Positions 640-50,700 of a stretch of DNA of 64,000 bases are shown here, piece by piece (the stretch's first letter is position 1; every line of letters starts with the position of its first letter). Both the position numbers and the translations under genes were made by a program. Origin of the DNA: Blasia pusilla. Lineage: Eukaryota. The stretch spans positions 21,142,001 through 21,206,000 of the forward strand of contig CM114271.1 in the NCBI GenBank assembly GCA_050084515.1. The letters run 5' to 3'. The notes under the pieces are model-generated. The model made no database searches and had not been told where the DNA came from. It was given only the letters and a program-made list of their open reading frames with translations.

Positions 640-1560
640 GGAGGGTATTCACGTGTTGGATCTCTTTGGAAGGATCAGTTTAGTTGTTGTTTTGCAGGCA
701 ACAGTACCTGTACGTTAAGATTGATGATGTTATGAGGTGCACTTCACGTCACCATATAGCGCAGTTATGCCTCCAATTTCCCGACTTCTTCTTTTTGTCC
801 GCCATGGAGGGGTACCAAAGTTCCCTACTGAGGGACATTTTATTGTTGGGACGCACGACTTGGAGCGGGTAGGGATCATAGACTTGGTCATTGCTGGTTG
901 GCCGTGTGAGGGTCAGTCGAGTGTTGGACAGGGTAGCGGACTCTCCGTCCATGTTATTTTGGGAGATGATGCGGATCTTGCAACACTTATAAGAGCATCG
1001 GTCTTGTTCTCTAGGATGCATTCTACAGAATGTGCCAATTTTGGGCAATTCAAGGTCCCAGGTGGTGACGAGTGCACATTAGGTACGTGCATGGATCAGC
1101 CCGGCACTGTTATTGGATGCGGCGCGTGTAGGTTCACGAGCACATCATCCACGTCTTTCGTGGACCAACTTTATGCCACATGAGGTTTTTTGGAGGGCTT
1201 ATGCGAGAGTGGAGCACCCCTCCCATTTGTTGGTGGATTCTATTCTTGATCCAAGTCGCCGATCATAGGCAGTACGACACGATGATCGACCTCCGTTGAC
1301 TATGGTCAACATGATTGGCATGCCACGAGCAGCTTTTCCCACATTGATGAGTTTTCCCGCTTCCTATGCATTCAAGGAGGTAGGGCCTGGCTTGGTTTGG
1401 GATGACTAGGTACAGCGGTTGGTGGAGCCCAATGCCAATGAGCGAGAGTGAGCGATGGGATTCCTCACACGAGTGATGGCAGTACCGTCACTATAAGAGG
1501 TATCATGACATCATGTCTTGGGTCAGGCGATGGACCTAAAGTGCTTGACATGGATTTTCA
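640..1560 (+). pseudogene. DNMT3-like C5 cytosine DNA methyltransferase domain inside the Gypsy polyprotein (disrupted)
   Basis: Motifs occur in the correct order across frameshifts: I 'IHVLDLFGRIS' (647-679), II 'YLYVKID', III 'LLRDI', IV 'DLVIAGWPCEGQS' (881-919), VI 'WEMMRIL..GCILQNVP' (~960-1037), VIII 'LLDAARVGSRAHHPRLSWTN' (1110-1169), IX 'EPNANERE*AMGF' (1425-1463), X 'LGQAMDL' (1518-1538). Confidence 0.9.
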
Positions 1561-4500
1561 GCTTAGGAGTAGTTGAGCAACGTTGTTTGCGGATGCGACA
1601 GATCACAGTTGTTGCATTGGTGAGCCCCATGCCTACCAAGATGGTTGAGGAAGTGGCTAGGGACGAGACTCGAGGAGATCGACACATCAAGGGTGATCGG
1701 GAGAGACATCCTTGGACTTCTTGGGATGTTTTGCAGGTATGCCACAAGATAATAACCACAGCATCGAGCGTGGTTCCGGGTACTACACGTGGAGATCCAA
1801 GTTTGCAATTGGTTGTAGGGGAGCAATTGAGTCATGTTGTCCGAGATGGGGTTGCACCATAGCAACCACCGACACCCGCGCCGGAGAGTCCTATTCTAGT
1901 AACGATGGAGACTTGGGAGCCAGATATGGGCCCTAAGTTGACAAGAGGAGAGCGGCGCCGGATACACCAGTTTTGTAGGAGTTATTGGAGTTGTTTTGCA
2001 TTTAGCATGCATGATTTGGGTACACTGAAGGTTCCAAGCATACGCATTGAGTTGTCGAGCGACACGCCGATCTTTCGACGACCCTATAGATACAGTGACA
2101 TGGAGAGGGCTTTGATTCATAGTAGGAGCCAAGACTTGGTTGGAGCAGCACTACTGGACATGTTCCATGGAGAGTATGCATCTGCCCCTATCATGCCCGC
2201 CAAGAAGGATGTGTATGGCAACTGGACGGATAGGCGGATGTGTGGAGATTACCGACCTATCAATTGGGAGACAAAGTCTGATAGGTATGCCATGCCCACC
2301 CTTGAGGAGATCTTTGATGCTATTGGGCATGCAACGGTCTTCAATTCCTTAGATCTTTGAGTCGGATACCATCAGCTACCTATCAGATTGGAGAACAGGC
2401 AGAAGACGGCATTTTTGGGCATGGATCCTCACGGGAAGGATTGCTTGTACCAATGGCGGTTCTTACCATTTGGGTTAAGGAACGCCCCCGGTGAGTTTCA
2501 GAGGGTCATGGATAGGATCTTGGCAGGTCGAGATTTTTCTAGGTGTTATATTGATGACATCATAGTCTTTAGCACCACATTTGAAGAGCATAAGTGACAT
2601 CTAGAGGAGGTGTTCCGACGATTGCAATTACATGGACTGAACCTTTATCTATGCAAGTGCAAGTTCTTCTACGACCAGATTGAGTACTTGGGTCATGCGA
2701 TATACCCAGGGGGGCTTGGTGTGCAGCAGACGAAGGTAGAGGCTATTTCACGCATTCCATGCCCAACAGATGTGAGTCAAGTTTGTGCATTCATGGGATT
2801 GGCGAACTTCTATCGACGGTACGTCAAGGGTTTCATTTCAATTGCAAAACTGTTGACCTTGCTAACCAAGGTGGATCAGGATTGGCACTAGGGGGATAAG
2901 CAAGAGAGCATTTTAGCTGCTTAGGGACCGATTGACGTCCACGCCCATATTGAGGAGACCGATCAGGGGGAGTCCTTTCCAGTTGCATACCGATTGGAGC
3001 ATGTTGGGGCTTGGAGACGTACTCACCCAGCATGACGATGAGGGTAAAGAGTTCGTGGTGGCTTACACTAGTCGCTTTAACAACGGTGTAGAGGCGAAGT
3101 ATAGCTCATATGAGGGTGAGTGCTTGGCTGCAGTGTGGGTTGTCATACATTTCAGATGTTATCTATTCGGCAATCCCTTTATCATCATTATTGATCACCA
3201 GCCACTTAAGTGGTTGATGGAGTCCGACAAGCTTACAGGGAAGCTGCAAGGTGAGCTCTTCTGTTGTAGGAGTATGACTTCTAGGTGGTGCATATGCTCA
3301 ACCAAGATGCAGATGGTTTGAGCCGTAATCCATGCCCAAGTTGGCGAGATGCAACTGGAGCTCGTTGGCATGATGAGAGTGATGAGGAGTTGGTGCCATG
3401 ATGGCATGCGTCAGCCTACTTGGGCTTGTTGGCTATGGAGAGCCAGATTGCTGAGACTTCGATGGCAAGGTCTGATGGAGAGTCCTTAGATCCAAAGGCG
3501 GGTGAGGAGACAACATGTGGCCAAGACATTCATGACAATGGAGTGGTCTTGGAGTACCTGCGTATTGGCAGCGTTGCAAGCACAGTGGGTGCTAGAGAGC
3601 AGGATCGGATCCTACAGCGAGCCATACGATTCCGATAGAAGGAGGCACATGTGTTACAAGTTTGGGACGATGGTAGAGTGTGTGTAGTGCCTCATCCTTT
3701 TCATAGAGCACGTTTGGTACGTCATGCCAACGAGGAGTATGGTCATTTTCGAGTGAAGCGGACGTAGAGCTTGCTCCAGATACAGTATAGGTGGCAAGGC
3801 ATGCAGACTAACGTTTAGCAGTTTGTCGCTAGGTGCATGGTTTGTGATCAGGTCCGGGCATCGTTCAATGCTCCGACTCCACAGTTGCATCCACTTTGAT
3901 CATGGATTTAGATTATAGATGGAGTTTGGATTTTGAAGGACCTTTATCTTTGACGGAGCGTCATAGTCATTATGTGTTGGTGATGGTCGAGTACTTCTCG
4001 AAGTGGATAGAGTTGGTTGCATTTCCTGACAAAGCGAGTGAGGGAGTAGCGTATGCTTTCCTAGATAGAGTGTTGAGTCATTACGGCGCACCAGCTGAGG
4101 TGTTGAAAAATGAGGGTACAAAGTTTCACGGGGAGTTTCAAGCCTTGTGTGATCAGGCGTTGATCGATCACCGTACCACTTCGCGAGATCATCCAAAGGC
4201 GGATGGACTAGCAAAGCGGGTTGGGCAGACGGTGAAGAGAGGACTACGCAAGTATGGCTTGCAGAGAGGTCACCTAGGAGATTGGAACCTCCAATTGTCG
4301 TGGTTGGCGATGGGTTACAAATTCCGCAGGAAAGCATCCTTAGCGTCTTTCTCACCGTACCTGCAGCTGTTCGTCAAGATGTTGGTGAGGTGTTGAACCG
4401 TGATGACCGTAATGTATGGATGCGAGCAGGTTCTCAGAGGGCTGAGTTATTTTAGAGAGTGATGCCCATGGCGTTTGAGAACTTGGTGATTGCGCAGCAT

Positions 4501-4784
4501 CGAGGTACGTTGAGGTATGCGACTATTCGGGAAGGTGTTTATCGACCTACTATCCGAAGGTTTCATCATAGAGACTATGTCTACTTGCAGCAGACGCCAC
4601 CCACGACGTTGGATGTGACTCCAAGGCGCACCATCTTGAGAGTGCTTGAGGTTTTGCCATGTGGTGTTCTCTTATTGGAGGCACACAATGCTATGGTGTG
4701 GAAGGATCATTTGCCTAACTATGCGCCATGTCATCTTCCTAACATTGACGATTTTGTTGATCCAAGATCAGCAGTAGTTCCTGC

Positions 4785-4935
4785 ATGCTTGCAATGTATG
4801 TTGTTTGATTGTGCCCGTGGTACAACCATTATGCTAGTCTGTGATGGGTGTTCGAGAGGGTGGCCTATGGCATGTCTGACGCCACCTCTCACCAAGGTTC
4901 CTCAGGGACGATGGATGTGTCCTAGATGTACATAG
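4785..4935 (+). other. PHD finger (C4HC3-like, partly decayed) at the C-terminus of the copy 1 integrase
   Basis: 'CLQCMLFDCARGTTIMLVCDGCSRGWPMACLTPPLTKVPQGRWMCPRC'. The intact pattern is seen in copy 2. Confidence 0.85.
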
Positions 4936-5113
4936 AGTAGGTAGTTCTACATTTTGACTTGTGTCTGTGACATGAATGACAAGAAGGCAACTAACGATGG
5001 GGCCACATTAGCACCCGTCCCTTTTGCTCTCAGCGTTTTAGAGATGTATGTCATGGTAGGTAGGGATGGATGGCTATCTGGATTAGAGGGACCTAACCAC
5101 CAACTACGGGGCG

Positions 5114-5860
5114 ATTGGAGATATTTTGGTACTTCGCGTCTCCTTGTTTGGATGCCTTGAGTTAGCATGGGATTGTGCGCGTTTGTGTGTATATTCATTG
5201 ATAGCGATTTATGTTGTGTAGCGATGTGTAGGCGCACGATAACTTTCATGAATTTTAAGATATATATATTGGCGAGATCTAGTAGAGAGCCTTTGGAGAT
5301 ACTCAAGGACAGTCTCAGGAGGTCGAGGATGACATGTTGAGGCCACGGATAACCTGAGAGAGCACGTTTTCCCTTTGTCTCGGCTCATTTGGAGCCATAT
5401 ACAGAAACTTACTATTTCGGTTAAGTTTCCCTTTGGAGTATAGTTGAATTTCCACTTTGGTAAGTTTCCCTTGACCCGCTACAGCATATCAAGAGCCAAG
5501 GAGATGAGCATAGGTTACCGAGGAGAGAGCTAGGGAGAGGGAAGGGAATATACCTCCAAGAGAGAGAGCTTAAGAGCTCATTCTCTCTTTGTTAAACCTC
5601 TTGGCACGTGGCGGCGGAGCTATGGTCATTCTTGCCTTGTGTGTGTAACCCAAGCCTCTCATTAGGAGAGTCGGTTTGGTTTGACATGAGAGAGTGCACA
5701 CCATGGAGAGATTGGTATGAGACATTGATGTGAGATTGGATAGATTTAACCCCATGCACACGAATCAAACGTTAACGTTACAAAGATGGGATCGTGCGTG
5801 TTTGTGTGTATATTAGTTGACAATGTATGTTGTGTATCGATGTATTTTCATACAAAAACA
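5114..5860 (+). repeat. 3' terminal repeats of copy 1: B1 (~5114-5241), 2-bp spacer, A2 (from 5244), partial B2 (~5786-5860)
   Basis: B1 and B2 both match 8713-8839 ('atgggat.gtgcg.gtttgtgtgt...atgttgtgta.cgatgt'). A2 matches 8195-8700. The junction reads cgcacgata|ac|tttcatg. Confidence 0.8.
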
Positions 5861-5950
5861 TGCATATTGTTAGACAACAAAATTGGAGTAACCATTGCTC
5901 ACAATGCCAACTCCACTCTCCAATCTACATGTCATCATCAAGCCACATCC

Positions 5951-6981
5951 TGTCGCAACCCTCATAACCAAACAACACCAAATAGGCGCCAAGCGAAACA
6001 TCATAACTCAAGGGAACTCACGCTGCGAGGTTTGCACTTTGGAGAGACGTTTGGAAAAGTCTCTTGGAAAAGTCTAAGAGACGAAACGCGGAACAAAGTT
6101 GTGCATTTCATGCGTTAGTGGTCGCGACCAGGAAACCTAGACCCAACGCGAGCCAAGATTTGAGATGAGTTGAGTCTTGGGAGGTTGGTTGCCAAAGAGG
6201 TGAGAACCAATTTGGAACACGACTAGCGTTTGGGAGAATCTGACTATGTTTAGGACCATAACGTTGAGCTCCAAGATGCGTCCGAGGCACGTAAGGGCGC
6301 GTCGGAAATCTGATCTTAAGATGCTTCCGATGCACTAAAGATCTCAGCAAACGCATAAGTACAGGTTGAGATATTAGGGTTTAGGATATTAGAGAGCAAT
6401 CGGGTTGAGGGCCAATTGGAGAGGCCCAAGTGTCTTTCCCTAAATGTAGGGGGCCCCCGGAGATCCCCAGAAGTACTAGTAAGGGAGGAGTCTCTCCGAG
6501 ATGTCTCGGAAAACGAATCCCCACTTTGGGCGCCAAACGGCGTTTCAGAGGCACGGGATGGAACGTGAGTTTGGCGTGGGAACTCGAAACCCAAACCTGA
6601 TCCAAGGGAGTGGACTTTGTACGGCACACTTGGATTCCAACCCGAGATTCACTTCGTGCGAGTCTTGATGAGGAACTCATTGGATGTCCATCGGATAGTT
6701 GGAACCGCTAGGCGCGAAACGCCGTTTCAGGTTCCTGAATCGACCAGAAATTCTGTCCCAAGTCTTTCGAGATTTTCCCGTGTTGTAAACCGCAAAACTA
6801 GGAAGGTTGAGCTTGATGAGAGTCCAAGACGAGAACTCGGAAAGTAATTCCGCTGATTGATCCAAGACCCGACTAACCAAAGTGCGTGTTTGGATGCAGA
6901 TCAGCCTTGAGAGCGTGACCTACTAAATGCACGCTTCCGCAACAAAAAAGATTAACGTTCAAGGAGAGTAGGCGCACGACA
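5951..6981 (+). mobile_element. Solo LTR (~1.0 kb family), 5-bp TSD CATCC
   Basis: Ends TGTCGC...CACGACA with CATCC on both sides. Homologous to 16700-17696 and 38509-39535. Confidence 0.9.
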
Positions 6982-8194
6982 CATCCCCCCTTCACCAGGA
7001 GGGAATTCAAACTCTACAACTCTAGCTCCTATCAAACCCTAGAAGAAAAAGTGCTACCTTGGCTCTACATGAGATGATAAGAAAGATAGTTCTTGAAATC
7101 CATATATCTCCTCACCTCTTATATCCTTGGGAGGAGTTCAAAGAGCTCTCCACACAAATATATCCAAAATTGGTTACCTCCACACATAGATTATCAGATG
7201 ATTGTTGACTTGATTAACATGTCAACTGATCCAAAATAGAAAAGAAAGGGGTTTGGAAAAAATGTTTATCCCAACACATTAGAACTATAACCAATGAACC
7301 TCATCCAATCTCATGGTTTTGCAAAAACTTTAGACTTCAATGCTCTTGGGTACTTGAGCCAATTTCAATCAATTTTTCTATTTTTATGATCCGACAACTT
7401 GTACATAGGTTACCGCCTTACCGGATGACCATTGACTCTATCAACGAGTCATCTTATTGACTAAGAAAAAACTATGAATTTTGTCAAAAATGATATTCCC
7501 GACGCAATAGACTTGTCGCCAACCTCATCCGACATCTCAAGACAAAGTTACACCCAAACAGCCTACTAACCCTCTATGTCATCAATGCGGTAGAACTCTA
7601 CCTGTTTGCTAGCTAAGATCTGGCATACTTAAATAGACCAATAGTGGACAACTCATAGACTTTCCTACTACTCTGTTTCTCTTTTGTCTTTAGTGTTGTT
7701 TAAGTAATTTGCTTCACTTGTTTTCATCAATGAACTGTTGCAATTGCACATGCCTGTTTGAACAATTTTTCCTTGGTTGAATTTTGTGCTTATTATAGTT
7801 GATTGATAGTGTCTCATTGCCCTTTCATGCGATTCTATCACGTAATATTTTGGTTACTTAACTAACTCATTGTGCACTTTCAATGTGCACATTCATCCGT
7901 GTAGAACTGAAAATGTTCATACTCACAATTGCATGTGTTATTTTCTTTTTTAGTTTTCGAGATACACCAAGCACCTTACTTGTGTGATCTCAATCTAGAT
8001 CGTTGTTATTTCAATAAGCTTGTGTTAATGTATACTTGGTGAGCACATGAACCGAGCAAAAGTGGTTAATATCATACATTACCTTTTTCCATTCCTATAA
8101 TGTGTTGTGATCCTCTCTTCTTATCCCTACCATTTTCTGTTAAGTGGATCTCTCCTTGAACTCTGCGCACTTCACTTACTATCATTGTTATGGT

Positions 8195-8839
8195 TGTCAC
8201 GTCTTTTAGAATAGATCGGTGAGATCTAGTAGAGCGCCTTCATGAGTAGTAGAAGACAGGCTCAGTAGGTTAAGGATGACCTGTTGAGGCCCCGGGAAAC
8301 CTGAGTGAGCAGGTTTCCCCTTCGTTTCAGCTCATTTGGAGCCATATTGAGGAACTTATTATTTTAGGTAAGTACCATTTTGAGTATATGATCGACTTTA
8401 TATTTTTGGTAAGTGGCCCTTGGCCTCCTACATCAGATCAAGAGCCAAGGAGGTGACTTGGGAGCATAGGTTACCATGGAGAGAGCTTGGGAGAGGGGAG
8501 GGGTATACCTCAAGGAGAGAGAGCTTGAGAGCTCATTCTCTCTTTGTTGAACCTCTTGGCATGAGGCGGCAGAGTTATGCTCTTGTTTGCCTTGTGTCTG
8601 TAACCAAAGCCTCTCATTAGGAGAATGGGTTTGGTTTGACATTGAGAGAGACATGTGAGAGTGCACACATTTGAGAACTATGGTGTTGTGAGAGAGATTG
8701 GATCTTATTTTATTGGAGATTTTTTGGTACTTCTTGTCTCGTTGTTTGGATGCCATGAGTAAGCATGGGATAGTGCGTGTTTGTGTGTGTGTTCGGTGAC
8801 AACGATGTATGTTGTGTAGCGATGTGTATGCGCACGACA
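8195..8839 (+). mobile_element. Solo A-B terminal repeat of the copy 1 Gypsy family
   Basis: TGTCAC...CACGACA; colinear with 5244-5860; flanks TGGT/TGGC (possible 4-bp TSD, one mismatch). Confidence 0.85.
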
Positions 8840-16699: not shown

Positions 16700-17696
16700 T
16701 GTCGCGCCCCTACTCTCCTTGAACGTCAATCTTTAGTGTTGCGGAAGCGAGCGTCGTTGATGGGTCATTTAACTCATCGCGATCGCACCCAAACACGCAC
16801 TCGTTAGTCGGGTTTGGCCAACCGGCGTTCAACCCACCGAGTCCTAAACTCGGCGTCTCATCAAGCTCAACCTTCCTTAGTTCCTAGCTCCCAACACATG
16901 GCAAGTCCTTCAAGACTTGGAACAGACTTCTGGTTAGTCCAGGGATCAAACGGCACTTGCACGCCTAGCGATCCCAACTGTTCAACGGTCCTCGTGTGAG
17001 TTCCGAACCGAGACCCAAGTAATTGAGTCGCGGCGTGAAATCCAAGAGGGATGTCTAAAATCGCCTCAATGGACTTGGTGCAGGTTTTCCAACCCAACGC
17101 CCAAACTCGCGTTCCGTTCCATGCTCTTGAGCCGCCCCGCGGCGCCCAAAGTGGGGTTTGGGTTCCAAGCACTCTCGGAGACCTTCCCCCTTACTAGTAC
17201 TTCTGGGGTTCTCCAATAACCCCTCCCCTTTGGGAAAAGAGGTTCGGGCCCTTCATTGTGGCCCTCAACCCGACTCCACTTACATTCGTTTTCGGGTTGT
17301 ATCTCGGCCACTGCTTATGCGTTTGCAACGATCTTTAGTGCGTTTTGACCGGCTCTCCATAAGCTTTCCAACGCACCCTTATTTGCTCCAGACGCATCTC
17401 GGCGCTAAAAGTTATGGCTAGAAATACAGTCAGAAACTCTCAAACGCAAGTGGCGTTCCAAATCCGGATCTTTCCTTTGGCAACCCACTTCCTAGACTCG
17501 ACTTCTTTCAAGTCTCATTCCACGTTTGGTCCAGGTTTCTGAGTTGCGACCATCACATCTGAAACGCGACTTCTCGCTCACGTCTCGTCTCTTGTCTCCT
17601 CTTTGAGACAACTCCAACGCGCAAACCATCTTAGCGTGAGCCCGCTAATGTTCCAATGTTCCGCTTGGCACTTGTTTGGTCATGAGGGTCGCGACT
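16700..17696 (-). mobile_element. Solo LTR (~1.0 kb family), reverse orientation, TSD GTGCC
   Basis: GTGCC|TGTCGCGCCCC...GGGTCGCGACT|GTGCC; close reverse-complement match to 38509-39535. Confidence 0.92.
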
Positions 17697-18680: not shown

Positions 18681-19699
18681 AAGAAAAATTTCCACAATAA
18701 ATTAAAAGCATATATTATTTTTATTCATCCCATAATCTTCATCTATCAAAAGTAATTTTTTTAATATTTTTATTATTACTTGTATTAGGATTAAAACTTG
18801 TAGAATGTTTTCGTAATGTGTCATTTTCAAATGTGAAAACTAAAAAATTATTTATTTGATTTTCAATTAATGAGTTTATGAAGATGTCATTGAGACTTTT
18901 GTAATTAGTCACGTCCAAATTTTTTTAAGATTTTCATCATTTCATCATTTTATCATTACATAATTAATTTATGATAGTTTTTGAAATATTTTTCTAATAT
19001 ACTTCTCCTTTCAATTATAGTAAATTTATTTTTTTTAATTATACCATTGGGAAAAATTGAACTCTTTTTTTGTATGGTACTTATCATTGAAAGTAAAAAA
19101 AAATCCATGAAGACTACATATCCTTTCTTTTGAATGTCAAAATGAATTTAAGTTAAGTTTAGTGCTAAGAATTTCTTACAAAATTTTCCCCTATGTTTTA
19201 AAATATAATTATTCTTCTACATTTCCTCCAAAACAATATTTTGGATGAGAAAAATATGAAATTTTGAAAATGAAATGGGAAGAAGGAAAGAGAATTTTTT
19301 TCAAAAGGACATATAGAGAATTTTGAATGGGGAAAAGGAAGTGAAGAATAAGATAAACTTTTCAAAGGAGCATGCGAGGGTAGGAAGAGAGAAAGGTAAA
19401 AATTTCATAAATTAGGATTTCATAAGGAAAAAATTCTTTAAATATTTAACTTTCAATAAGAGGGAATATTGTGCTTATACATATCTATACATGGACATGT
19501 ATATATATTTAATTTTGATTCACTCCAAAATTCCCCAACTTCTTGTAATCATATTGAACAAATGGTGCTCTCTACAAAGGATGAGGCATCACTTGTACTT
19601 TACCATCCTCCCAAACTAGCAAAACATGTTTCTCCTCCCACTTGAACTAGCTCGCTCTCTATAGGATCTAATCTTACTCTTTGGTATCCACCATGCCCG

Positions 19700-20390
19700 T
19701 TATGATGTCAATGCATAAGTACTTCAAAACTACCGGATCCTTGTGGATATCTCGGTCACCTATCGCCTCTTGACCGTCCTTTTGATGGGGAGACTCTCCA
19801 TCTAACCTAGTCTTCAAAGTTCATGTTGTATAGCTCTTCACGGTCAATAAAGACCAAATAGGAAAATGTGTACCATGCATGCATCATATCCTCATCACTC
19901 TCATAATGTCAATAAGCTCCAATTGCATCTCATTAACTCGTACATAGGCTTCCACTCAAACCATCTATATCTTGATTCAATCTCCTAGGTTGATGTACCA
20001 CTTAGAAATCATACTCCTTCAACAACAAAGCCCATTTGAAAAGTTTCCTTCTAACCTTGTTACATTCCATCAACCATTTTAGTGGTTTGTGATCAATGAT
20101 GAGAATAAAGGGTTATGGAACAAATAACACATGAAATGCGTGACGGCCCATAATGCAGCCAAGCACTCTCCATTGAATGAACTACACTTTGCCTCTCCAA
20201 CATTGTTCAAGATGCTAGTATAAGCCACTATGAATTCCCTACCCTCATTGTCATGATGGATGACAACCGCTCCCAATCCCAACGTGATCAAATTAGTGTG
20301 CAATTGGAAAGGATGCACCCTACGTGGTCTCCTCAACATAGGTACGGATGTCGATGTTGAGCAATTGAAAATGGTCTCTCCTATGTGTTG
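19700..20390 (-). mobile_element. Gypsy RNase H relic of the same lineage as copies 1 and 2
   Basis: ORF 20079-20339 'LRRPRRVHPFQLHTN..TLGLGAV..HDNEGREFIVAY..GECLAALWAVTHF' aligns with 2932-3321. Confidence 0.85.
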
Positions 20391-22629
20391 ATTATTTCCG
20401 CAAAGCTTGTTGCGGATTTTAGCTCAAACCTAAAACATGGCTAAATATGCATCACGATTAATCCCTTGTTGATGGAGTTGAACATGTAGGGAGGGAGAGT
20501 GTTCCCCCCTATAGGTACTTCTAGAGTTCTCCATGGAAACACTACATTCTCCATTTTTTGTCCCAAGCCCTTGATTTTGGCCCCTAACCCAAACGTGGTT
20601 GGTGACCCGCAAACTTGTGTTTGACTAGTTACCCCCCAACTATGAGGCAGAATCTTCTTCTAGATTCTTGCAGATTCCCAAACGCATCTTGGAGCTTGGA
20701 CCCGCATTTTTTTATTTCATGTCGAGGGCTTGTCTTGACTACACCTCTTTCTCGCCTAAAGCTAGTCTCAAGATGCTTGCTTGTTTTGCTTAACTTTAGT
20801 CCCACGACCACTTCCACCTATGTTCCTAATCTTGCGACTAGCTTGTCTAGGTTTCAACTTTGGTGGGTCACACCAAGATCTTTTCTCCTTAGATCAAAAA
20901 TCATGAATTTTTTCTTGAATCCCTACTAGCGTGAGCTCCATAAATTTAACTATTCGCGACACCTTGAGTATATGCTGTGACCTAAAGTGTAACCCAAATA
21001 CACAATCTAGTCATAGAAAAACTTGCAATTGCATGGACGTAACTTTTTCCCACGTAACATCAATCGTTGAAATATCTCTACAAGTTGTTGCTCATGGTAC
21101 TTAACCACGGTACTAAAGACTAGGATGTCATCAATCTAACAATGAGCATAATCCAAGTTTGCCAAGATTCTCTCTACGAACCTTTAAAAATCCTTTGGGG
21201 CAATGATAGAATCTACCTATTCCTCAAGATTAGATGCACAGTATTGATGATGGACCAAGTTGCTCCAATTACAATATTTTATCTTGTCAAACCAAAGCTT
21301 CTCTCATGGAGAGAGGATGGGATTACAGACCAAACAAGGGATATCACAATTTTTTCGCCTCATGCAAAAGAGGTTCAATAAAGAGAGAATGAGCTTCTAA
21401 ACTCTCCCTTTGAAGTATGTCTATCCTCTCTCTCTTCGATGACCCATGCAAGTAACCTCCATGATCCTAAACTTGAAATAGTGAGACGAGTGTCCTTTTT
21501 ATAAATAATAAGGAAAATATCTCGAAATAGAGAACTTGCCTAAAATAGCAAGTTCCTAATTTGTCCCTAGCCTTTCATTGGGAAATGAGATAAGATAATG
21601 AAGGAGGGCACAAGGGAAAAAAAGAAGAAGGTAGAAACACACCCTTTCCATTCATCCACATAATAGAGGTATCCAAAGGATAGAGATTGAAAATAAATTT
21701 CATGAGTAGATTAGAGAGATTGAATGATTTAATATGATATGGAACTGGCATATATGAAATGGGAAAGAATACTAGAGTTTTTCTAGAGGTTCTCTCCTAA
21801 AGGTTTGAGTCTCTCTAAAACAATACATCTCACAACACATGAACACTATAAATATGAAATGGAATCCGAATTTCAATTATATAATTTCTCTTTTAAGTGC
21901 TTCTTTGTTATTATTTAATTTAGAAAACAATCATAATTAAACCCTTTCTAGCAATGATTAGTTAGTGTGTCCATGTTTGCGTACTAAAATGATTTTAAAA
22001 GTAATTTCTAAATATTTTCATTTCAAAATTTAAATATGATGTCCACTTTCTTAAATCTTAAAAGAGTAACAACATTCCAATCTTCTTAATAATTCGATCG
22101 CTTCATAAAAGTTTAAAGCTTACATACTCCTCCCCTTCCACTCCTTCCACGAAAGTAACACCCACTAGCTATTTCATTGGTTAATCTAAATTAATGAAAT
22201 CATTTTCCTCTACCATTCAAATTCATTTCCTAAAATATCAAATGTATATTAAGGGAAAAACTTATAAAATTTTTATTATTTATCTTTTTATGTCATTATT
22301 TTATCTTATTGTGCATATAAGGTAGTCAATAATAATATAATTTTAAAAATAACAATTAATAAAACTAGTAAGGATCCTAAGGGACCATGCCATATACTCT
22401 TTGGGTTTAATAATTCAAGTTTTAATGTCACTCTTCTTACTATTCTCCCTACTAGCGTAAGCGCTTGCAATGCACGTGTTTATATTACCTTCCTTATTTA
22501 ATTCTCAAATGCCATTTCAAATCAATTTTGAATGATTTTAAGAATTCAAAAGGCAAACCATCCCATTAACTAAAAATGTCAAAAGGAGAGGAGTTTGCAA
22601 AATCAAGAGACACTCAATAATAAGAGAAA

Positions 22630-37633: not shown

Positions 37634-40600
37634 TGTCGTACGAATCCACATCGTCATAAAACATACATCGCTGACATACCATACTCATATACATACATAA
37701 CATAGACGAGAGCATCCACAAACACAAGTGTACCACAACTCGAAATCTGTGAAAGATCTACTGTCATGAAACACGTATAGAATCACATACAATCGAGCCA
37801 AACCCACTCCACCATGGGAGAATCTAGGTCGAAGCTTGCGGGAATCACCATAGCCAAGAGCTCTACTCACTACCAAGGCTAACTCCCAACGCAACAAGCT
37901 CAACTCAAAGAACTAACTATTCTTTGAGTGCACTCCACACTATATCCTCCAACCTAAGAGCAGACCCTACTGGAAAAGTCACCCTCAACTGAATAACCCC
38001 CAACCCTATGTATGAAACCGCACCTCTGCTTGGACACTACGGCCCTACATAAGGTATGGCCTCTACTAGCACACTATATTTTATGACATAATCCGTCATG
38101 ACAACTGTCGTGCGAATCCACATCGTGATACAACATACATCCCTCATATATCATACTCACATACATACATAACATAGACGAGAGCATCCACAAACACAAG
38201 TGTACCACAACTCGTCCCCCAAACTCTCTAACTCCCAAGTAGCCCTAGACATCTACTACATGCTATACACCTTCCTAGGTGTAGGATTCAGAAGGCCGGG
38301 TGCTAGGTTAACCCATCGTTAGTCGCACATGTGTAATCCATATCATGCAAAGATCAAGTCATCTACCTCTCCTAAGTACATCGAGGACAAACCCACCTTC
38401 CAGTAGGAACAACATCCATACGTGGAGTCAAACACATCATGTGCCAACCCCTAGAACACCGATCACACACCAACATAGGGGTTGCGTTACCAGCAGACCC
38501 ACACAACATGTCGCGACCCTCATGACCAAACAAGTGCCAAGAGGAACATCGGAACATTAGCGGGCTCACGCTAAGATGGTTTGCGCGTTGGAGTTGTCTC
38601 AAAGAGGAGACAAGATACGAGACGCGAACGAGGAGTCGCGTTTCAAGTGTTATGGTCGCGACTGAGAAACCAGGACCAAACGCGGAATGAGACTTGAAAG
38701 AAGTCGAGTCTAGGAAGTGGGTTGCCAAAAGGAAGATCCGGATCCGGATTAGGATCCGGATCCGAATTAGGAACGCCACTAGCGTTTGAGAGTTTCCGAC
38801 TGTATTTATGGCCATAACTTTTAACGCTGAGATGCATTTGGAGCAAATAAGGGTGCGTTGGAAAGCTTATGGAGAGCCGGTCCAAGCGCACCAAAAATCG
38901 CTTCAAACGCATAAGCAGCGGCCGAGATACGACCCGAAAACGACTGTAAGTGGAGTCGGGTTGAGGGCCACAATGAAGGGCCCGACCCTCTTTTCCCAAA
39001 GGGGAGGGGTTATTGGAGAACCCCAGAAGTACTAGTAAGGGGGAAGGTCTCCGAGAGTGCTTGGAACCCAAACCCCACTTTGGGCGCCGCGGGGCGGCTC
39101 AAGGGCATGGAACGGAACGCGAGTTTGGTCGTTGGGTTGGAAAACCTGCACCAAGTCCATTGAGGCAATTTTAGACATCCCTCTTGGATTTCACGCCGCG
39201 ACTCAATTACTTGGTTCTCGGTTCGGAACTCACACGAGGACCGTTGAACAGTTGGGATCGCTAGGCGTGCAAGTGCCGTTTCAGATCCCTGGACTAACCA
39301 GGAAGTCTGTTCCAAGTCTTGAAGGACTTGCCATGTTTTGGAAGCTAGGAACTAAGGAAGGTTGAGCTTGATGAGACGCCGAGTCAAGGACTCGGTGGGT
39401 TGGAACGCCGGTTGGCCCAGACCCGACTAACGAGAGTGCGTGTTTGGATGCAGATCGGCGATGAGTTCGTGACCTACTGAACGCACGCTTCCGTAACACT
39501 AAAGATTGACGTTCAACGAGAGTAGGGGCGCGACACAACATGCACCTCAAGCTAGCACGTATCATGGCTAAGCTTGGGTCAACAGTACCATCCACATTTG
39601 GTAGATGACATGGCGCACAATTACGCACATGGTCCCTCCAAATAACTCCATCACGAACCTCTAACATGAGAACTCCATAAGCTAACACCTCGCGCACTCG
39701 TAAAATACTGCGGCTTGCCACCACATCTAACGTTTTCAGTGCAATCTGCTGCAAATAGACATAGTTCCCCACATGGAACCTACAAATCAATGGTCGATAA
39801 CCTCCACCCCGAATGGTTGCATACCGCAACGTATCCCAGTGTTGAGCAATGGCAAGATTCTCAAAGGCTGTTGGCATAATTCTCCGAAAGAGCTCTGCCC
39901 GTTGAGAACACATTCTCATCCACATCTCTGGGTCATCAAGGTTCACCATCTCACTAGACTTCGGACGAATTTCTGGTGGCAAGTCTGGATCTCGGCCGTA
40001 TAACAGAAAATAAGGTGAGAAGGAAGCCAAGGATGCTTGGCGACTGAACCTATACCCCATGGCTAACCATGGCAACCGAATATCCCAGTTTCCAAGATGC
40101 CCCTTCTGTAGGCCATACTTGCGCAATGACCTCTTCACCGTCTGAACCACACGCTCAGCCAAACCATCCGCCTCTAGATGATCTCGAGACGTGGTCCAAT
40201 GATCAATCAATACCTTGTCACACAAGACCTGAAACTCACCCTGAAACTCTGTACCCTGGTCGGCCAGCACTTCAGCTAGTGCACCAAAATGACTAAGCAA
40301 AATGATTTGCCTTGTCAAGTAATGCCAACAACTCAATCCACTTGGAGAAGTGCTCCACCATCACCAACACATATCGATGATGTCGTACACTCAACGGTAA
40401 CGGACCCGCAAAGTTCACACTCCAATGGTAACCCAACCCCATAATAGGCAAAGGGTGTAACTGTGGTGTAGGGGCATTGAATGATGCCCTCACCCGGTCA
40501 CAAACCATACAACGTGAAACCAATTGCTGCACCTGAGTATGCATGCCACGCCACCAATACTGACCAAGGAGTAAGCTATACGTACGCTTTACCCCAAAAT

Positions 40601-43139
40601 GTCTCAACTCCTCATGGGCATGTCGCACAATGCGCTCTCTCTGAGCCAAATGCGGCACCACTCGTACTCTACCATCCTCTCATACACGGAGAATATGTGT
40701 TCTCTCCAATCGATACCTCTTAGCACGTTGAAGAACACGGTCTCGCTCCTTAGCACTCACTATGCCTCGCACCCTACTGGTCCGTAGGAACTCTAACACC
40801 AACGCATCATCATGAATATCATGTTGATCCATACCACCATCTCCAACCTTAGGATCTGAAGGCTAGCCATCTACCCTCTGACTAGAGTAAGATGTCATGT
40901 GGTCCTCCATACTAGAGTCCACCCCTAACCAACATAAAAAGGCAGATGCATGCCAACCTGGCACCATCTCCTCATCAACCTCGCCATGCCATCTAGCCCT
41001 AGTTGCATCCTCTTGGCTAGTATATGGGTTCCTACTCAACCCATCAGCATCAAGGTTGGCAACTCCATGTCTTCCATCAACCACTTGAGCGGCTGGTGAT
41101 CAGTAACAAGGGTAAACTGTGTGCCAAACAAGTAACACCTAAAGTCTACCACAACCCACACTACTGCCAAGCACTCTCCCTCATATGAACTATAGCGCAA
41201 CTCCGCTGCATTATTTGAACAACTTGCATAGGCCACCAAAAACTCCATGTGCTCATCATCATGTTGTGTCAACACCACTCCAAGTCCCAACCTACTCCAA
41301 TCAGTGTGTAACTGAAATGGGCGCCCTCTGATAGGTCTCCTCAAGATAGGCGCCGTCACCAACTGGGCCTTGAGCTCCAAAAAAGCTCTCTCCTGATCAT
41401 CTCCCCAGTGCCACTCCTAATCTGATTTCAGAAATTGGTTCAAAGGCTTTGCCATAACACTAAATCCCTTCACATACCTCCGATAGTAGTTCGCCAATCC
41501 CATGAATGCCCGAACTCTACTCAAATCTACCGGACGAGGAATAAGTGCAATAGCCTCCACCTTTGCTTGTTGAACTCCCAAACCACCTGGATAGATCACA
41601 TGACCCAAGTACTCGACATCCTCATGGAAGAACTTACACTTTCTTGGATGCAAACGTAGACCATGAGCTTTCAACCGCTCAAATACAAACTGAAAATGTA
41701 TCTGATGATCCTCCACCGTGTTACTGAACACCAAGATATCATCAATGTAACACCCAACAAAATCCAACCCTGCTAGGATCCTGTCCATCACTCTATGAAA
41801 CTCGGTAGGTGCATTCTTCAGCCCAAAGGGTAAGAATTTCCACTGGTACAAACAATCCTTGCCATGAGAGTTGACACCCCAAAATATTGTCTTGGCCTTG
41901 TCACTCTCTTGAATTCGCAACTGATGGTATCCTGCTCGAAGATCCAAAGTACTGAAAATCTTTGCCTGTCCCACCACATCAAAGATCTCCTCAGGTGTAA
42001 GCATGGCATACCTATCGGCCTTGGTCTGCTGATTGATAGGACGGTAATCTCCACGTATCCGCCTATCCGTGTAGTTGCCATGCACATCCTTTTTAGCACG
42101 CATGATAGTGGCTGATGCATACTCTTCATGCGAGAACTCCACTAATCCAGCCTCCAAAAGGTCCAACGTCCTACTCTGAATCAGGTCCCTCTCCATATCA
42201 CTATATCGGTAGGGATGACAGAAGATTGGCGAATCAGTAGCCAAATCAATCCGTATACCGGGTCCAACCAAAGCACCCAACTCCTTCATGCTAAAGGCAA
42301 AACAACTCCTATAAGCACGTAGGAATTGTGTCAAGCGTCGTTTCTCACCTCCCCTAAGCTTGGGCCCAAATAACGGCTCCCAAGTCTCCTCCATCGGCAC
42401 ACTAGAGGGAGAGGACGACGCCATTGGCTGCTATGCAACCCCCTCACAAGATGGTACACCCTTAGCTACACCATCATCTGAGCAAATAACTCCTCCAGCA
42501 GCATGAGCAACCAACTCCACATGCCCAGCCATTACGAACCAGAGTCTTCAATCCTTGATAACTTCCAACTCCCTTAACAAAATCCAGCAATCTAAAGCGC
42601 ATTGGAAAGCTCTAAGCAAGGCGCTTCTTTGCTAGCCAACCACACACCAGATTCATACCTCCAACATAGGCCACAAGCTACGAACATCCATGGTTGAGTA
42701 CACAATCAGCCCTAACCAGATCCTAGTGATCCACGATCGAAGCTACCATCGATCTACTCCAGTTCTTTGAGTGAAATCCGTGAAAGACCTACTGTCATAA
42801 AACACGTATAGAATCACATACAATCAAGCCAAACCCACTCCACCATGGGAGAATCCAAGTCGAAGCTTGCGGGAACCACTATAGCCAAGAGCTCTACTCA
42901 CTACCAAGGCTAACTCCCAATGCAACAAGCTCAACTCAAAGAACTAATTGTTCTTTGAGTGCACTCCACATTATATCCTCCAACCTAAGAGCGGGCTCTA
43001 CTGGAAAAGTCACCCTCAACTGAATAATCCCCAACCCTATGTATGAAACCGCATCTCTACCTAGACACTACGGCCCTACATAAGGTATGGCCTCTACTAG
43101 CACACTATACTCTACGACATAATCCGTATGGTCATGACA
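37634..43139 (-). mobile_element. Ty3/Gypsy copy 2 (RT-RNaseH-IN-PHD; gag, PR and DNMT absent) with split direct repeats A1...B1-A2-B2
   Basis: RT ORF 41417-42424 ('YIDDILVFS'), RNase H 41036-41380, integrase HHCC and core 39540-40661, PHD 38372-38508 plus 39536-39550. A1 42773-43139 matches A2 37742-38103; B1 38106-38214 matches B2 37634-37742. Termini TG...CA; flanks CCAT/GCAT. Confidence 0.93.
38509..39535 (+). mobile_element. Solo LTR (~1.0 kb family) inserted in the PHD finger of Gypsy copy 2, TSD CAACA
   Basis: CAACA|TGTCGCG...CGCGACA|CAACA. Removing it restores 'LRCMLCGSAGNATPMLVCDRCSRGWHMMCLTP..GRWVCPRC'. Confidence 0.95.
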
Positions 43140-47722: not shown

Positions 47723-50700
47723 TGTTAGATAAATACATTTTAGATAAAGGTGTTCGACTTAAAATGTGTTAAAGGAACTACCTAAATGCTGCTACTCTTA
47801 GCAATCCGACATCTAACCTAAGACACTTGATCACTTGACTAGAAGGGCCACTTGGTCAGTTGGCTACTTGGCCACTTGACCACTTGGCCACTCAACCATA
47901 GAGTATCTTATCTCTAGCCACTATCCAGATTAGTATATAGTCTGGGGCTTGAATAAACATCATACTTGAAGTTCTCCATAAAGTTTAGATGTAGGTTTAC
48001 CATTGTATCATTACCATTGTGTATACATCTCTCATATATTTCTAACAAGTTATGGGCCTGAATGGGAATCACGATGGTTTCCATGTTGGAATCTTTGATG
48101 GTTCTGACTGGAAAGAGTGGAAGAATCGTGTTCACAATCTTCTTGTTTACAGAGATTTATGGGACGCAGTTGCTAAATGAGTATATAATACATCTGTGCC
48201 AGATGCGTCACCTACCTCTCCTTCTGAAAGTGCAGATAAAGCACCTCAAGTATATGTTCATCAACATATACTTCAAACACGGACTATTCAGCAGAATGAA
48301 AAGTTAGAAAATCAGGCTCGCGCTCTGATTTGTTTACATTTGATATGAGAACCTCTGGCTCTAACAGAACATCTTGATACAACTCAAGAATTATGGGCCT
48401 GCCTATATCGTAATTATGATACGACAGGTTCATTCTCTTTACTACACTTACAAGCGTCCATGTACAAACTCACTGTTGAATCTTGCAGATCACCTCAAGA
48501 TTTTCTGTCACAACTCAAGATTACTGCAAATAATCTTGCATCCGTAGGATCTCCTGTTCCAAACACACATCTATTCACTTTTGCAATTAGCAAACTTCAT
48601 GCTGAATACAAATCTCTCATTCACGTATTGATGTAGAAAGATAAACCTTCTTTTGACGATCTTCAAACTGGAGTATTGTATGATTCTGAACTGGATAACC
48701 TTCCAAATTTGAAAGTATTCTAGTTTCCAATTCTATTCATAATTCTACCAAGAAACGTCTATTTAAGTCTATGTTTACTAAGTATCAAAGAAAAATTCCT
48801 CAGAGGAATGCCAAACAGCCTTATTGTTACATTTGTAACGAGAAAGATCACATCTCAAGCAAATGTCCTAACAGAAAATTTCTCAAGAAATTTTGTGAGT
48901 ATTGCAAAACTCAAACATAAGATATCTCATCTTTGCTAGTCAATACTTCACCTATCACTCAAGCATTAACACGCTCCACATGTGAGGAGCTACAACCACA
49001 TGAACCACTCTATCTGTTCATGATACAAAGATCCTCTACATCTCTTTCCCAGATCTTTCCAAACTTTGGATCCTTGATTCTGGTTCAAATTCCCATGTTT
49101 GTTGTCAAAGAGAATTGTTCTCTAATTTCCTTCCTATTTCTCCAATTCTCATTTCTGGAATAGGCAATGGCAAAATATATGCTACAGCTACTGGGAATGT
49201 TCAATTAAAGCTTTTTGTCAAAGGCTCTTTGGAATTACATACTCTTTCCAATGTTCTGTTCATTCCTACAAGACAACACAATATTGTTTTTGTGAAGAAA
49301 CTTGTTGAAAGTCTATAGATATCCTTTTCTATTCTCACAATATGTCTTTTGAACAAGCAAGGTCATTGTTTAGGTACAGGTTTTGCCAGGCATGGCATGT
49401 ATCTAATTGAATGTCAATCTTGTACTCCATCGATAATTTTGATAGCCAGAAGTTCATCCAATCTCTGGCACAATCATATGGAACCTCTCAACAATCAGCA
49501 TTTATTGCAACTACATCAACAAAAAATGGTTCAAGGTCTAGATCATATCAATGATCTCAATTTCTGTACAAACTGTGTTAAAAGCAAGCTCATCAGGCAA
49601 CATATCACAGGAGATGGACAAGATCTTCTTGTTCAAAAGGCTCTAGATCTGATTCACAATGATCTACCAGGACCAATGAAGACACCCAGTATTAGAAACG
49701 CCTACTATTTCTGTACTTTTCTTGACCAATATACAAAGAAATCCTTTGTCTATATTCTTCACAAGAAGTCAGATGTCTTTTCTACATTCCAGAAGTTCAA
49801 AATCATGGTTGAGAAAGAAACCGGTCTCCAGATTCGTGTTCTCAAAATAGATGGAGGTGGTGAATACATAGACTCTTCTTTCCAAGTCTTTCTTCAGACT
49901 TTTGGTATTCTTCATCAACGCATAGGAAGAGATTCTCCTATGTAGAATGGATCTGCTAAAAGACTCAACCACACACTACAGGAAAAGGCAAGATGTATGC
50001 TCATTCACATGCGCCTTTCTATATCATTTTGGGGAGAAGCAATTGTTACAGCTAACTATCTTCGAAACTTGAGTCCTACTCAAACTCTTTCAACAACACC
50101 TTCTGAAGCTTGGAGTGGTCTCAAACCTACTCTCACATATCTTCGAGTGTTTGGATGTCAATAATTTGCTCTCATTCCAGTTGAGAGAAGAAGAAAGATG
50201 GATTCTACGGGTGAAGAATGTATATTCCTTGGTTATCATATTGGTTCTAGATGTTATAAACTTTTCAATCCCAATACAAAACGTGTTTTTCTTAGCAAAG
50301 ATGTTGTCTTCAATGAAGATACTCCTTTCACCTTCTCTCTTGTTGTTCACTCTACTTATTCTCCATTTTTTTATTCTTTCCCAGTAGAAAACTCTGAACC
50401 GATAACTGTCCCTAAAGCAATTAAAAAAAAAACTACAGTTCAGAAAAATATTTAAATAGTGGGAGATACTTCAAGAAAAATAGGTGTTGTTGCTTTAGAG
50501 AAATCCATGGGACATTTTCCCACGTATTTTCATCCTAGGCGATCATCATGAACATCTGTACCAGTACATATGTATGATACTGCTTGCTCAAACATTCCTC
50601 TCTCTTCTTGTATCCAATCTGATCCACTCACAAGAACAGAAGCCCTCTCTAGATCAGATTCTCATGGTGGCAAACTGCTATGGAAGCTGAAATTTCCTCT

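Follow-up and report, generated by a model that had tools for sequence, protein, structure and literature searches.

Recoding is the means by which retroelements fix the ratio of structural to enzymatic proteins. Plant Ty3/gypsy elements are usually regarded as carrying a single ORF; in the Ogre Ty3/gypsy elements of legumes, a spliced intron bearing stop codons lies between protease (PR) and reverse transcriptase (RT), and gag-pro is in excess over RT-integrase. In the gammaretrovirus MuLV, the stop codon lies between gag and pro-pol, and a pseudoknot some 8 nt further on is needed for its read-through. The passages of PMC5009743 on this retroelement describe how the structural/enzymatic ratio is tuned through the read-through of one in-frame UAG.

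The tobamovirus type I stop reads UAG CAA UUA, with the consensus UAG-CAR-YYA. According to the passages of PMC2754532 that treat TMV, the CAR YYA following the UAG is essential for read-through, the level reached in planta with this context is 32%, and the context still allows UAA or UGA to be read. The same passages place a methyltransferase in the short TMV product and the polymerase in its extension. KnitGypsy-Dnmt3 of Klebsormidium nitens is a Gypsy-type element whose coding region includes a DNMT3-like methyltransferase (DNMT) and whose repeats are split in a DIRS-like manner; the paper that describes it places the DNMT within the Pol polyprotein ORF (de Mendoza et al. 2018, PMC5890265).

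We analyzed a window of 64,000 nt from the liverwort Blasia pusilla (contig CM114271.1, positions 21,142,001 to 21,206,000, forward strand). Its elements resemble KnitGypsy-Dnmt3 in their PR-DNMT-RT-RNase H (RH)-integrase (IN) order and their split direct repeats, and differ from it in that a stop codon parts DNMT from RT. The K. nitens proteins P0025 and P0036 showed 42–44% identity to our RT query; its nearest named relatives were liverwort proteins (71–81%). As in Ogre, a stop-bearing interruption lies between protease and RT, but here it is a single codon and no splicing was seen. As in MuLV, a retroelement would tune its structural/enzymatic ratio through one in-frame UAG; unlike in MuLV, the stop follows both protease and methyltransferase and has C as its next base; single-sequence folds downstream gave z-scores anywhere from −0.7 to −4.3, and no conserved structure emerged. 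The likeness to tobamoviruses is an in-frame UAG, which UAA may replace, followed by CAR and two pyrimidines. As in those viruses, the short product contains a methyltransferase, although of an unrelated kind, and the downstream frame encodes a polymerase; it lacks its own start codon in the related loci L025 and L058, but not in the largest family of relatives or in copy 2 of the window. The present host of the signal is a nuclear LTR-type retrotransposon rather than a plus-strand RNA virus, and the sixth base after the stop in the largest family is C or T, not A. We found no account of this stop in the literature searched: the word "readthrough" is absent from the main texts of PMC5890265 and of a 2026 preprint, and full-text searches, among them one on liverwort DNMT-gypsy elements, returned nothing relevant.

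Elements and stop codons in the window

Copy 1 lies on the forward strand at the start of the window, which cuts it. A decayed ORF1 remnant (1–1859) with two frame changes reaches from the last part of the protease through a DNMT3-like methyltransferase into a linker. In tblastn searches, residues 661–1250 of P0122 matched positions 1–1751 and residues 614–1146 of P0034 matched positions 1–1670, in frames 1, 2, and 3. Pfam searches of the stop-masked frames of copy 1 gave no DNMT at E < 0.01, and the domain was seen only through tblastn with relatives. The in-frame TAG at the ORF1/ORF2 boundary (1860–1862) is followed by CAA CCA (1863–1868), a match to the CAR-YYA consensus taken from the passages on it in PMC2754532. 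The decayed ORF2 remnant (1869–4929) contains stops and frame changes; Pfam identified RVT_1, RT_RNaseH, Integrase_H2C2, rve, and PHD, and residues 17–1030 of P0008 matched 1905–4929 by tblastn. Self-BLAST and repeat families placed the 3′ split direct repeats at 5114–5843 (B1, 5114–5239; A2, 5264–5694; B2, 5786–5843).

Copy 2 lies on the reverse strand. Its 5′ terminal repeat A1 (42773–43127; 355 nt) is 94% identical to 37742–38096 and is separated from the TAG by only 339 nt. Between them are a leader (42536–42772) and the final 34 codons of the linker between DNMT and RT (42434–42535), fused directly to each other. Loose ends of family reads marked this junction from both sides: 16 reads of RNA run X20 and 12 of X21 ended at 42534, and 81 reads of X20, 40 of X21, and 36 contigs of X1 ended at 42535. 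The sense-strand consensus of the loose ends at 42535 encodes a peptide resembling HPWTSWDV of copy 1, and in full-length relatives the leader continues into different sequence. A splice was rejected as the origin of the junction, which has no AG on the acceptor side; its appearance is that of a deletion, with microhomology of 2 nt. The in-frame TAG (42431–42433), identified by sequence, frame, and family reads, is followed by CAG CCA (42425–42430), again a CAR-YYA match, and the third codon past the stop is ATG. Pfam, tblastn with P0008, and self-BLAST defined an ORF2 remnant with RT, RNase H, integrase, and PHD finger (38378–42424), which is broken by an unrelated repeat of about 1 kb (38502–39537). 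The 3′ split direct repeats span 37634–38214 (B1, 38106–38214; A2, 37742–38096; B2, 37634–37742). Copy 3 (19512–21288, reverse strand; Pfam, self-BLAST, and tblastn) is a fragment of RT and RNase H that belongs to the same clade and stops short of the junction. Both junction-bearing copies are dead relics, copy 1 being truncated and rich in stops and copy 2 an internal deletion derivative.

The Ty3/gypsy order of PR, RT, RNase H, and integrase was found by Pfam in the related locus L025, which also has Gag CCHC knuckles, and RT, RNase H, and integrase were found in copies 1 and 2. Long terminal repeats flank Ty3/gypsy elements; the termini seen here are split direct repeats (A1 ... B1-A2-B2), a DIRS-like arrangement as in KnitGypsy-Dnmt3 (PMC5890265). 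The best relatives of the DNMT with a solved structure were DNMT3A, 3B, and 3C (E ~1e-7), and the PCQ, ENV, and FxG motifs were invariant in 19 ORF1 proteins.

A preliminary description of this DNA had reported in-frame TAGs in two diverged copies, at equivalent positions between DNMT and RT and in a CAR-YYA context. Both codons were found where reported, copy 1 reading GGG GTT GCA CCA TAG CAA CCA and copy 2 GGG GTT GCA TAG CAG CCA ATG. Both are in the RT frame and at homologous positions, one CCA codon being an indel between the copies. The copies are indeed diverged, with a BLASTN likeness of just 66–72% that begins beyond the stop (1907 in copy 1, 42389 in copy 2). The location between DNMT and RT holds for copy 1 but not for copy 2, from which Gag-PR-DNMT has been deleted. 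The frame is open for 117 codons 5′ of the copy 1 TAG and, on the 3′ side of the respective stops, for 165 codons in copy 1 and 337 in copy 2.

The two stops could have arisen by independent decay in dead copies, for example by C-to-T change at a methylated CAG. Both copies are plainly decayed or rearranged, the genome is CpG-depleted (observed/expected 0.64), and the bare motif TAGCARYYA is no commoner than chance, with three occurrences in the window where shuffled sequence predicts 4.1; the third (55168–55176, reverse strand) is non-coding and outside any coding frame. What exceeds chance is the position of the stop and not the bare motif, because stops are sparse in the RT frame of both copies (about 4 per ~380 codons in copy 1 and 1 per ~340 codons in copy 2) and related elements have a stop at the same codon. 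Coincidence of stops at one codon in the two copies would be expected by chance at roughly the 1% level. With the evidence from relatives given below, which places the stop in intact as well as decayed elements, we find independent decay scarcely credible.

The junction in intact and related elements

The metagenomic locus L025 is wholly intact. Two ORFs in the same frame (976–5085, 1369 aa; 5086–8229, 1047 aa) give 1369 codons of Gag-PR-DNMT, a single TAG CAG TTA, and 1047 codons of RT-RH-IN-PHD. Read across the TAG, Pfam returned in order Asp_protease_2 (weak), DNA_methylase (PF00145), RVT_1, RT_RNaseH, Integrase_H2C2, rve, and PHD, and the ORF1 translation contains two CCHC motifs. The possibility that the host of L025 reads TAG as sense was rejected, as there is only one TAG in 2417 codons. 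The preliminary description had held that a sense codon such as CAG in intact copies would speak for decay; the intact copy has the opposite.

Junctions were collected in several ways. One search paired a DNMT motif with an RT motif in 80 loci and did not require a stop. No pair was found in 47 loci, the motifs were in different frames in 12, and they shared a frame in 21, of which 10 had a junction stop followed by CAR, 7 had stops only elsewhere, and 4 (L042, L043, L051, and L069) had no stop at all (0 stops in 324 codons). The proteins P0012, P0018, P0028, and P0061 are likewise fused without a stop; the stop is thus dispensable in the wider group. Another search, anchored on conserved sequence downstream of the junction and also not requiring a stop, yielded 31 junctions of one liverwort-like family after the unrelated L017:11589 and L078:888 were dropped. 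The junction codon was a stop in 30 of these (7 TAA and 23 TAG) and TAC in one (L022), and CAA came next in 30 of 31. Interchange of TAA and TAG in this family preserves the stop. From a further search, which required a stop, unrelated matches at L044, L049, L050, L053, L066, L070, and L074 were dropped.

In all, an in-frame stop with ORF2 in the same frame was found in copies 1 and 2, L025, L026, L058, and 30 of 31 members of the large family. Neither CAG nor CAA occurred at the stop codon among the relatives examined, the TAC of L022 being the sole sense codon. We conclude that the stop is shared across intact and decayed relatives and is not the product of parallel decay.

After the stop, CAR came next in 33 of 34 stop-bearing junction sequences and the following two bases were YY in all 34, while CAR-YYA was complete in five: both window copies, as the preliminary description had it, and L025, L026, and L058. 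The contexts of the five lineages were CAA CCA in copy 1, CAG CCA in copy 2, CAA CCC or CAA CCT in the large, most numerous family (CAR-YY with a sixth base other than A), CAG TTA in L025 and L026, and CAA TCA in L058. The second residue after the stop thus varies (Pro, Leu, or Ser) while the YY(A) pattern is kept. As a control, 35 further in-frame stops within these spans were inspected, and CAR came after none of them. The base immediately after the stop was C in 33 of 34 junctions and T in L033, not the G of a MuLV-like UAG-G. When 15 sequences were folded jointly, the consensus was weak (−5.9 kcal/mol) and no helix had overall support; the TWEP...GPK codons do retain a small hairpin, but it overlaps conserved residues and lacks double changes.

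Protein databases give further support. Of 41 matches to the DNMT region, 20 had PF00145 without RT and ended 75–165 residues past DNMT motif X; these 20 predicted Gag-PR-DNMT proteins, from Marchantia, Calypogeia, and metagenomes, end at the homologous spot, and P0124 (Marchantia) and P0131 have the C-terminal VA encoded by copy 2. The RT-RH-IN-PHD proteins P0005, P0006, P0007, P0008, and P0011 start 13–70 residues before the TWEP motif, P0005 being a Coleochaete scutata transcript. In a tree of a 240-residue RT window, for which just six loci had an intact window and from which P0155, P0047, and P0044 were left out because the motif was missing, the stop-bearing and ORF2-only rows of the group formed one clade (support 100/99), with the fused forms outside. 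The TAG of L025, the stops in 30 of 31 family members, the 20 proteins that end there, and the CAR in 33 of 34 junctions together support the reading of this codon as a probable leaky stop.

Transcripts and expression of ORF2

Reads of copy 2's own family (at least 80% likeness) comprised 518 and 397 RNA reads from runs X20 and X21, which were chosen by species label, and 19867 and 453 contig pieces from X1 and X2. At 42425–42433, no other letter appeared among the 40 rows listed from the two DNA and two RNA runs, though a minority of the family may have a sense codon there; flanking synonymous variants were listed at 42434 and 42419. This result is a further point against decay. RNA depth over the stop was about 81 in X20 and 49 in X21. 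The first mate was on the forward strand in almost all cases, so the reads are sense to the element, given the usual stranded library.

These reads bear on a second alternative, that the linker containing the stop is an Ogre-like intron whose removal joins ORF1 to ORF2. The Marchantia gene models P0004, P0034, and P0123 do leap over the linker with predicted introns, and in both window copies a pyrimidine-rich tract and then CTAG occur shortly past the stop. Against an intron, no splice joints were reported in X20 or X21 at a depth of 43–95 over the stop region, and there was no cluster of RNA loose ends between 42215 and 42533 among the matches listed. The frame is also open right up to the stop (the 117 codons of copy 1 and all 1369 of L025), and in a comparison of L025 with L058 the 130 codons before the stop had a dN/dS of 0.20. 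The bridging introns are most simply explained as the detour of a gene predictor avoiding the stop, and are probably artefacts. Sense transcripts contain the stop, no splicing over it was observed, and we regard an intron as very improbable.

A third alternative accepts the conserved ORF boundary but has ORF2 translated separately, from the ATG three codons on, from a non-AUG start, by termination and reinitiation, or from a shorter, pol-only RNA like that of copy 2. In copy 2 and in 28 of 29 members of the large family, the third codon past the stop is indeed ATG. In addition, about 14–22 X20 RNA reads seem to span the junction at which the copy 2 leader abuts the last 34 linker codons (depth minus loose ends), which indicates that pol-only RNAs exist. 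As noted above, however, that junction looks like a deletion and not like a splice. The ATG is missing, moreover, where the element is best preserved: the first in-frame ATG lies 117 codons past the stop in both L025 and L058. In copy 1 the frame lacks an ATG for 15 codons, and in L017 for 34. Codons 1–116 after the stop had a dN/dS of 0.083 at a dS of 1.10 between L025 and L058, which shows purifying selection on a stretch that lacks a start codon. Reinitiation past an ORF of about 1370 codons is unexpected in eukaryotic translation, and separate translation leaves the conserved CAR-YY context without a role. We therefore consider separate translation of ORF2 unlikely.

Programmed read-through as the probable explanation

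The best explanation, and in our judgment a probable one, is that the TAG is an inherited functional ORF1/ORF2 boundary that is passed by programmed read-through. The element is a retrotransposon of the Ty3/gypsy type with a DNMT3-like methyltransferase and two in-frame ORFs. ORF1 encodes Gag, protease, and methyltransferase; ORF2, which has no start codon of its own in the best-preserved relatives, encodes RT, RNase H, integrase, and the PHD finger. Most ribosomes would halt at the UAG, or at the UAA of some relatives. A minority, aided by CAR-YY(A) as at the tobamovirus leaky stop, would decode it with a near-cognate tRNA and continue into ORF2. The outcome would be much Gag-PR-DNMT and little Gag-PR-DNMT-RT-RH-IN-PHD, and the stop would probably set the ratio of the element's proteins. 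That read-through occurs, how efficient it may be, and which amino acid would be inserted are matters of inference; by the precedent of TMV (PMC2754532), the residue would be expected to be tyrosine.

A broader interpretation, possible but on balance doubtful, sees in the leaky stop a means of dosage control found in methyltransferase-carrying retrotransposons alone. It joins three suppositions. Free Gag-PR-DNMT would be the main product, so that the cell, or an active element's own particles, might receive much more de novo methyltransferase than RT. Pol-only deletion derivatives such as copy 2, which keep the stop region, might produce RT-IN starting in a 34-codon leader ORF, either by reading through the stop or by reinitiating at the ATG close by, and borrow Gag-PR-DNMT in trans. 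The stop might have had a single origin in a streptophyte clade and have been kept from charophyte algae to liverworts.

For genome annotation, the practical consequence is that the bridged Marchantia models are suspect. The signal is a short natural sequence, directly testable in Marchantia. A whole methyltransferase-carrying clade retains one in-frame stop, in a leaky context of the plant-virus type, between methyltransferase and RT. If read-through is true, it would show how a transposon doses its own epigenetic enzyme, placing it in the abundant rather than the rare product.

Two stops in the reverse transcriptase frame

Copy 1, on the plus strand, has GCA CCA TAG CAA CCA at the junction (TAG at 1860–1862); the minus-strand copy 2 has GCA TAG CAG CCA there (TAG at 42433–42431). 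Both stops lie in the reverse transcriptase (RT) frame, which stays open past the stop for 165 codons in copy 1 and for 337 codons in copy 2, and they align if a single-codon indel (CCA) is allowed; the preliminary description of in-frame stops at an equivalent position was thereby confirmed. The DNA of the two copies is only 66–72% identical, and BLASTN similarity starts just past the stop. The nine-letter motif, TAG plus CARYYA, occurs three times in the window vs. 4.1 expected, and the third occurrence is in non-coding sequence. The motif alone is unremarkable; its position is what needs explaining.

Pfam domains RVT_1, RT_RNaseH, Integrase_H2C2, rve, and PHD were found 3′ of both stops. 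In copy 1, tblastn with relatives placed the protease end and a cytosine methyltransferase (DNMT) 5′ of the stop, as a remnant spread over three frames with several stops. The placement of the stop between DNMT and RT therefore held for copy 1 but not for copy 2, from which the DNMT has been deleted. Among named proteins, the closest come from the liverworts Marchantia polymorpha (71–81%) and Calypogeia fissa (77%). The methyltransferase of these elements is DNMT3-like as judged by homology: among solved structures, DNMT3A, 3B, and 3C match it best, and its catalytic motifs are invariant across 19 relatives.

In both copies the termini are split direct repeats (A1 ... B1-A2-B2) instead of plain LTRs, with blocks at 37634–38214 and 42773–43127 in copy 2 and at 5114–5843 in copy 1. 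An extra A-B repeat pair at 8211–8837 has no coding part adjoining it. At 60732–60869 (minus), a short stretch matches the Gag portion at the N terminus of the Marchantia ORF1 (Gag-PR-DNMT) proteins (52–55% over 44–46 residues) and represents one more fragment of such an element. An unrelated repeat family of ~1 kb is present at 5944–6983 (+), 38502–39537 (+), and 16700–17695 (−), the last two being 93–96% identical to each other and 68% identical to the first; in copy 2, one member is inserted between the integrase and the PHD finger. Direct repeats at 47723–48053 and 52287–52666, 93–94% identical and ~4.6 kb apart, probably mark the two ends of another LTR element. Base composition of the window is 41.7% G+C, with a CpG ratio of 0.64.

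In copy 2, only 339 nt separate the end of the 355-nt terminal repeat from the TAG. Sequences matched to its family depart from the reference at 42535 (81 reads in RNA run X20, 40 in RNA run X21, and 36 contigs in DNA run X1), and their sense-strand continuation encodes a peptide resembling the copy 1 linker, the DNMT–RT stretch holding the stop (HPWTSWDV in copy 1). Leader-side reads depart at 42534 (16 in X20 and 12 in X21). Because of these departures into a copy 1-like linker, we conclude that copy 2 is an internal deletion derivative and pol-only (minus, 42434–43127; junction 42535/42536), in which Gag, protease, and methyltransferase have been lost and the leader directly abuts the final 34 codons of the linker. 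A canonical splice at this junction was ruled out, because it has two bases in common and lacks AG. Since approximately 14–22 X20 RNA reads seem to cross it (depth minus loose ends), and only 8 of the 518 RNA reads matched in X20 are at least 99% alike, other copies with the same deletion may exist and be transcribed.

The junction stop in relatives

PF00145 occurred without RT in 20 of 41 database matches to the methyltransferase region, ending 75–165 residues past motif X; two such relatives, P0124 (Marchantia) and P0131, terminate in VA, like the frame preceding the copy 2 stop. Proteins with the ORF2 order RT-RH-IN-PHD (P0005, a Coleochaete scutata transcript; P0006; P0007; P0008; P0011) start 13–70 residues ahead of a conserved TWEP motif. 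Three M. polymorpha gene models (P0004, P0034, and P0123) join methyltransferase to RT by skipping a stop-bearing linker of ~65–100 codons; these skips are probably predicted introns avoiding the stop, not real splicing.

A profile built from 19 ORF1 proteins retrieved 80 metagenome loci, and in these the stretch between DNMT and RT motifs was searched, with a stop not required. The motif pair was absent from 47 loci, in different frames in 12, and in the same frame in 21; these last had a junction stop followed by CAR in 10 cases, no stop in 4, and stops only elsewhere in 7. Locus L025 is intact in a single frame (1369 codons, TAG, 1047 codons) and, read through the stop, has the full order Gag-PR-DNMT-RT-RH-IN-PHD. 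An anchor search on conserved sequence 3′ of the junction gave 31 junctions of one large, liverwort-like family, of which 30 have a stop (23 TAG and 7 TAA) and one has TAC; CAA comes next in 30 of the 31. The lone exception, L022, has its TAC (Tyr) ~48 nt before position 7008 in an otherwise decayed copy. In the TMV context, the leaky UAG is reported to be decoded as tyrosine (PMC2754532).

Among the matches listed from two DNA and two RNA runs (at least 80% likeness), no alternative letter was found at the copy 2 stop or the following six bases, and synonymous neighbor variants at 42434 and 42419 did appear; a minority variant may exist in this family. All stop-bearing sequences in the tree cluster with this group's ORF2-only proteins in a single clade (support 100/99), with fused forms outside. 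In a sister group, a single open frame spans DNMT and RT with no stop (L042, L043, L051, and L069; P0012, P0018, P0028, and P0061), which argues for a gain or loss of the stop somewhere within the broader set of DNMT elements. Proteins, relatives' DNA, the window's own family reads, and phylogeny thus agree in favoring design over decay, and the earlier proposal of readthrough gains support from comparison with relatives: across family copies, the stop was kept in 30 of 31 junctions of the large family and in intact L025.

Access to ORF2

Frameshifting is not needed, because ORF1 and ORF2 share a frame. In L025 and a second locus, L058, the first in-frame ATG is 117 codons past the stop. Codons 1–116 have a dN/dS of 0.083 at dS 1.10 between these loci, which points to translation of the ATG-less stretch. 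In the largest family ATG is the third codon past the stop in 28 of 29 cases, as it is in copy 2. All stop-bearing junctions except one have C directly 3′ of the stop. The hexamers that follow are CAA CCA, CAG CCA, CAA CCC or CCT, CAG TTA, and CAA TCA; the second residue differs (Pro, Leu, or Ser) and the pyrimidine pattern is constant. The largest family departs from CAR-YYA at the sixth base. Not one of the 35 other stops within these spans has CAR next. Folding of the RNA past the stop gave single-sequence z-scores from −0.7 to −4.3 and a weak consensus fold over 15 sequences (−5.9 kcal/mol). Were the stop-bearing linker an intron, ORF2 could be joined by its removal; however, sense-orientation RNA reads continue through the stop, and no joints across it were found in RNA reads at a depth of 43–95. 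The comparisons support tobamovirus-like readthrough into ORF2, in which ribosomes would pass the stop as at a tobamovirus type I leaky stop.

Comparison with known systems

For the tobamovirus leaky stop, the consensus described as essential is CAR YYA following UAG; the context is reported to yield 32% read-through in planta, to permit lower levels with UAA or UGA, and to lose activity when the C after the stop is changed (PMC2754532). KnitGypsy-Dnmt3 of Klebsormidium nitens is a described element of the same kind; its methyltransferase is said to belong to the ORF for the Pol polyprotein, and its repeats have a DIRS-like layout (PMC5890265), like the split direct repeats of both window copies. 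Neither the text of that paper nor a 2026 preprint in which streptophyte Gypsy-DNMT3 is only named (10.64898/2026.05.21.726589) contains the term "readthrough"; no published description of a stop at the DNMT–RT junction was found in the literature searched. By analogy, the retrotransposon stop would be like the tobamovirus type I stop in mechanism and would share its purpose with the gammaretroviral gag-pol stop (PMC5009743). It differs in that the host is a plant-lineage retrotransposon, in its position after protease and methyltransferase and before RT, and in what the abundant product would contain.
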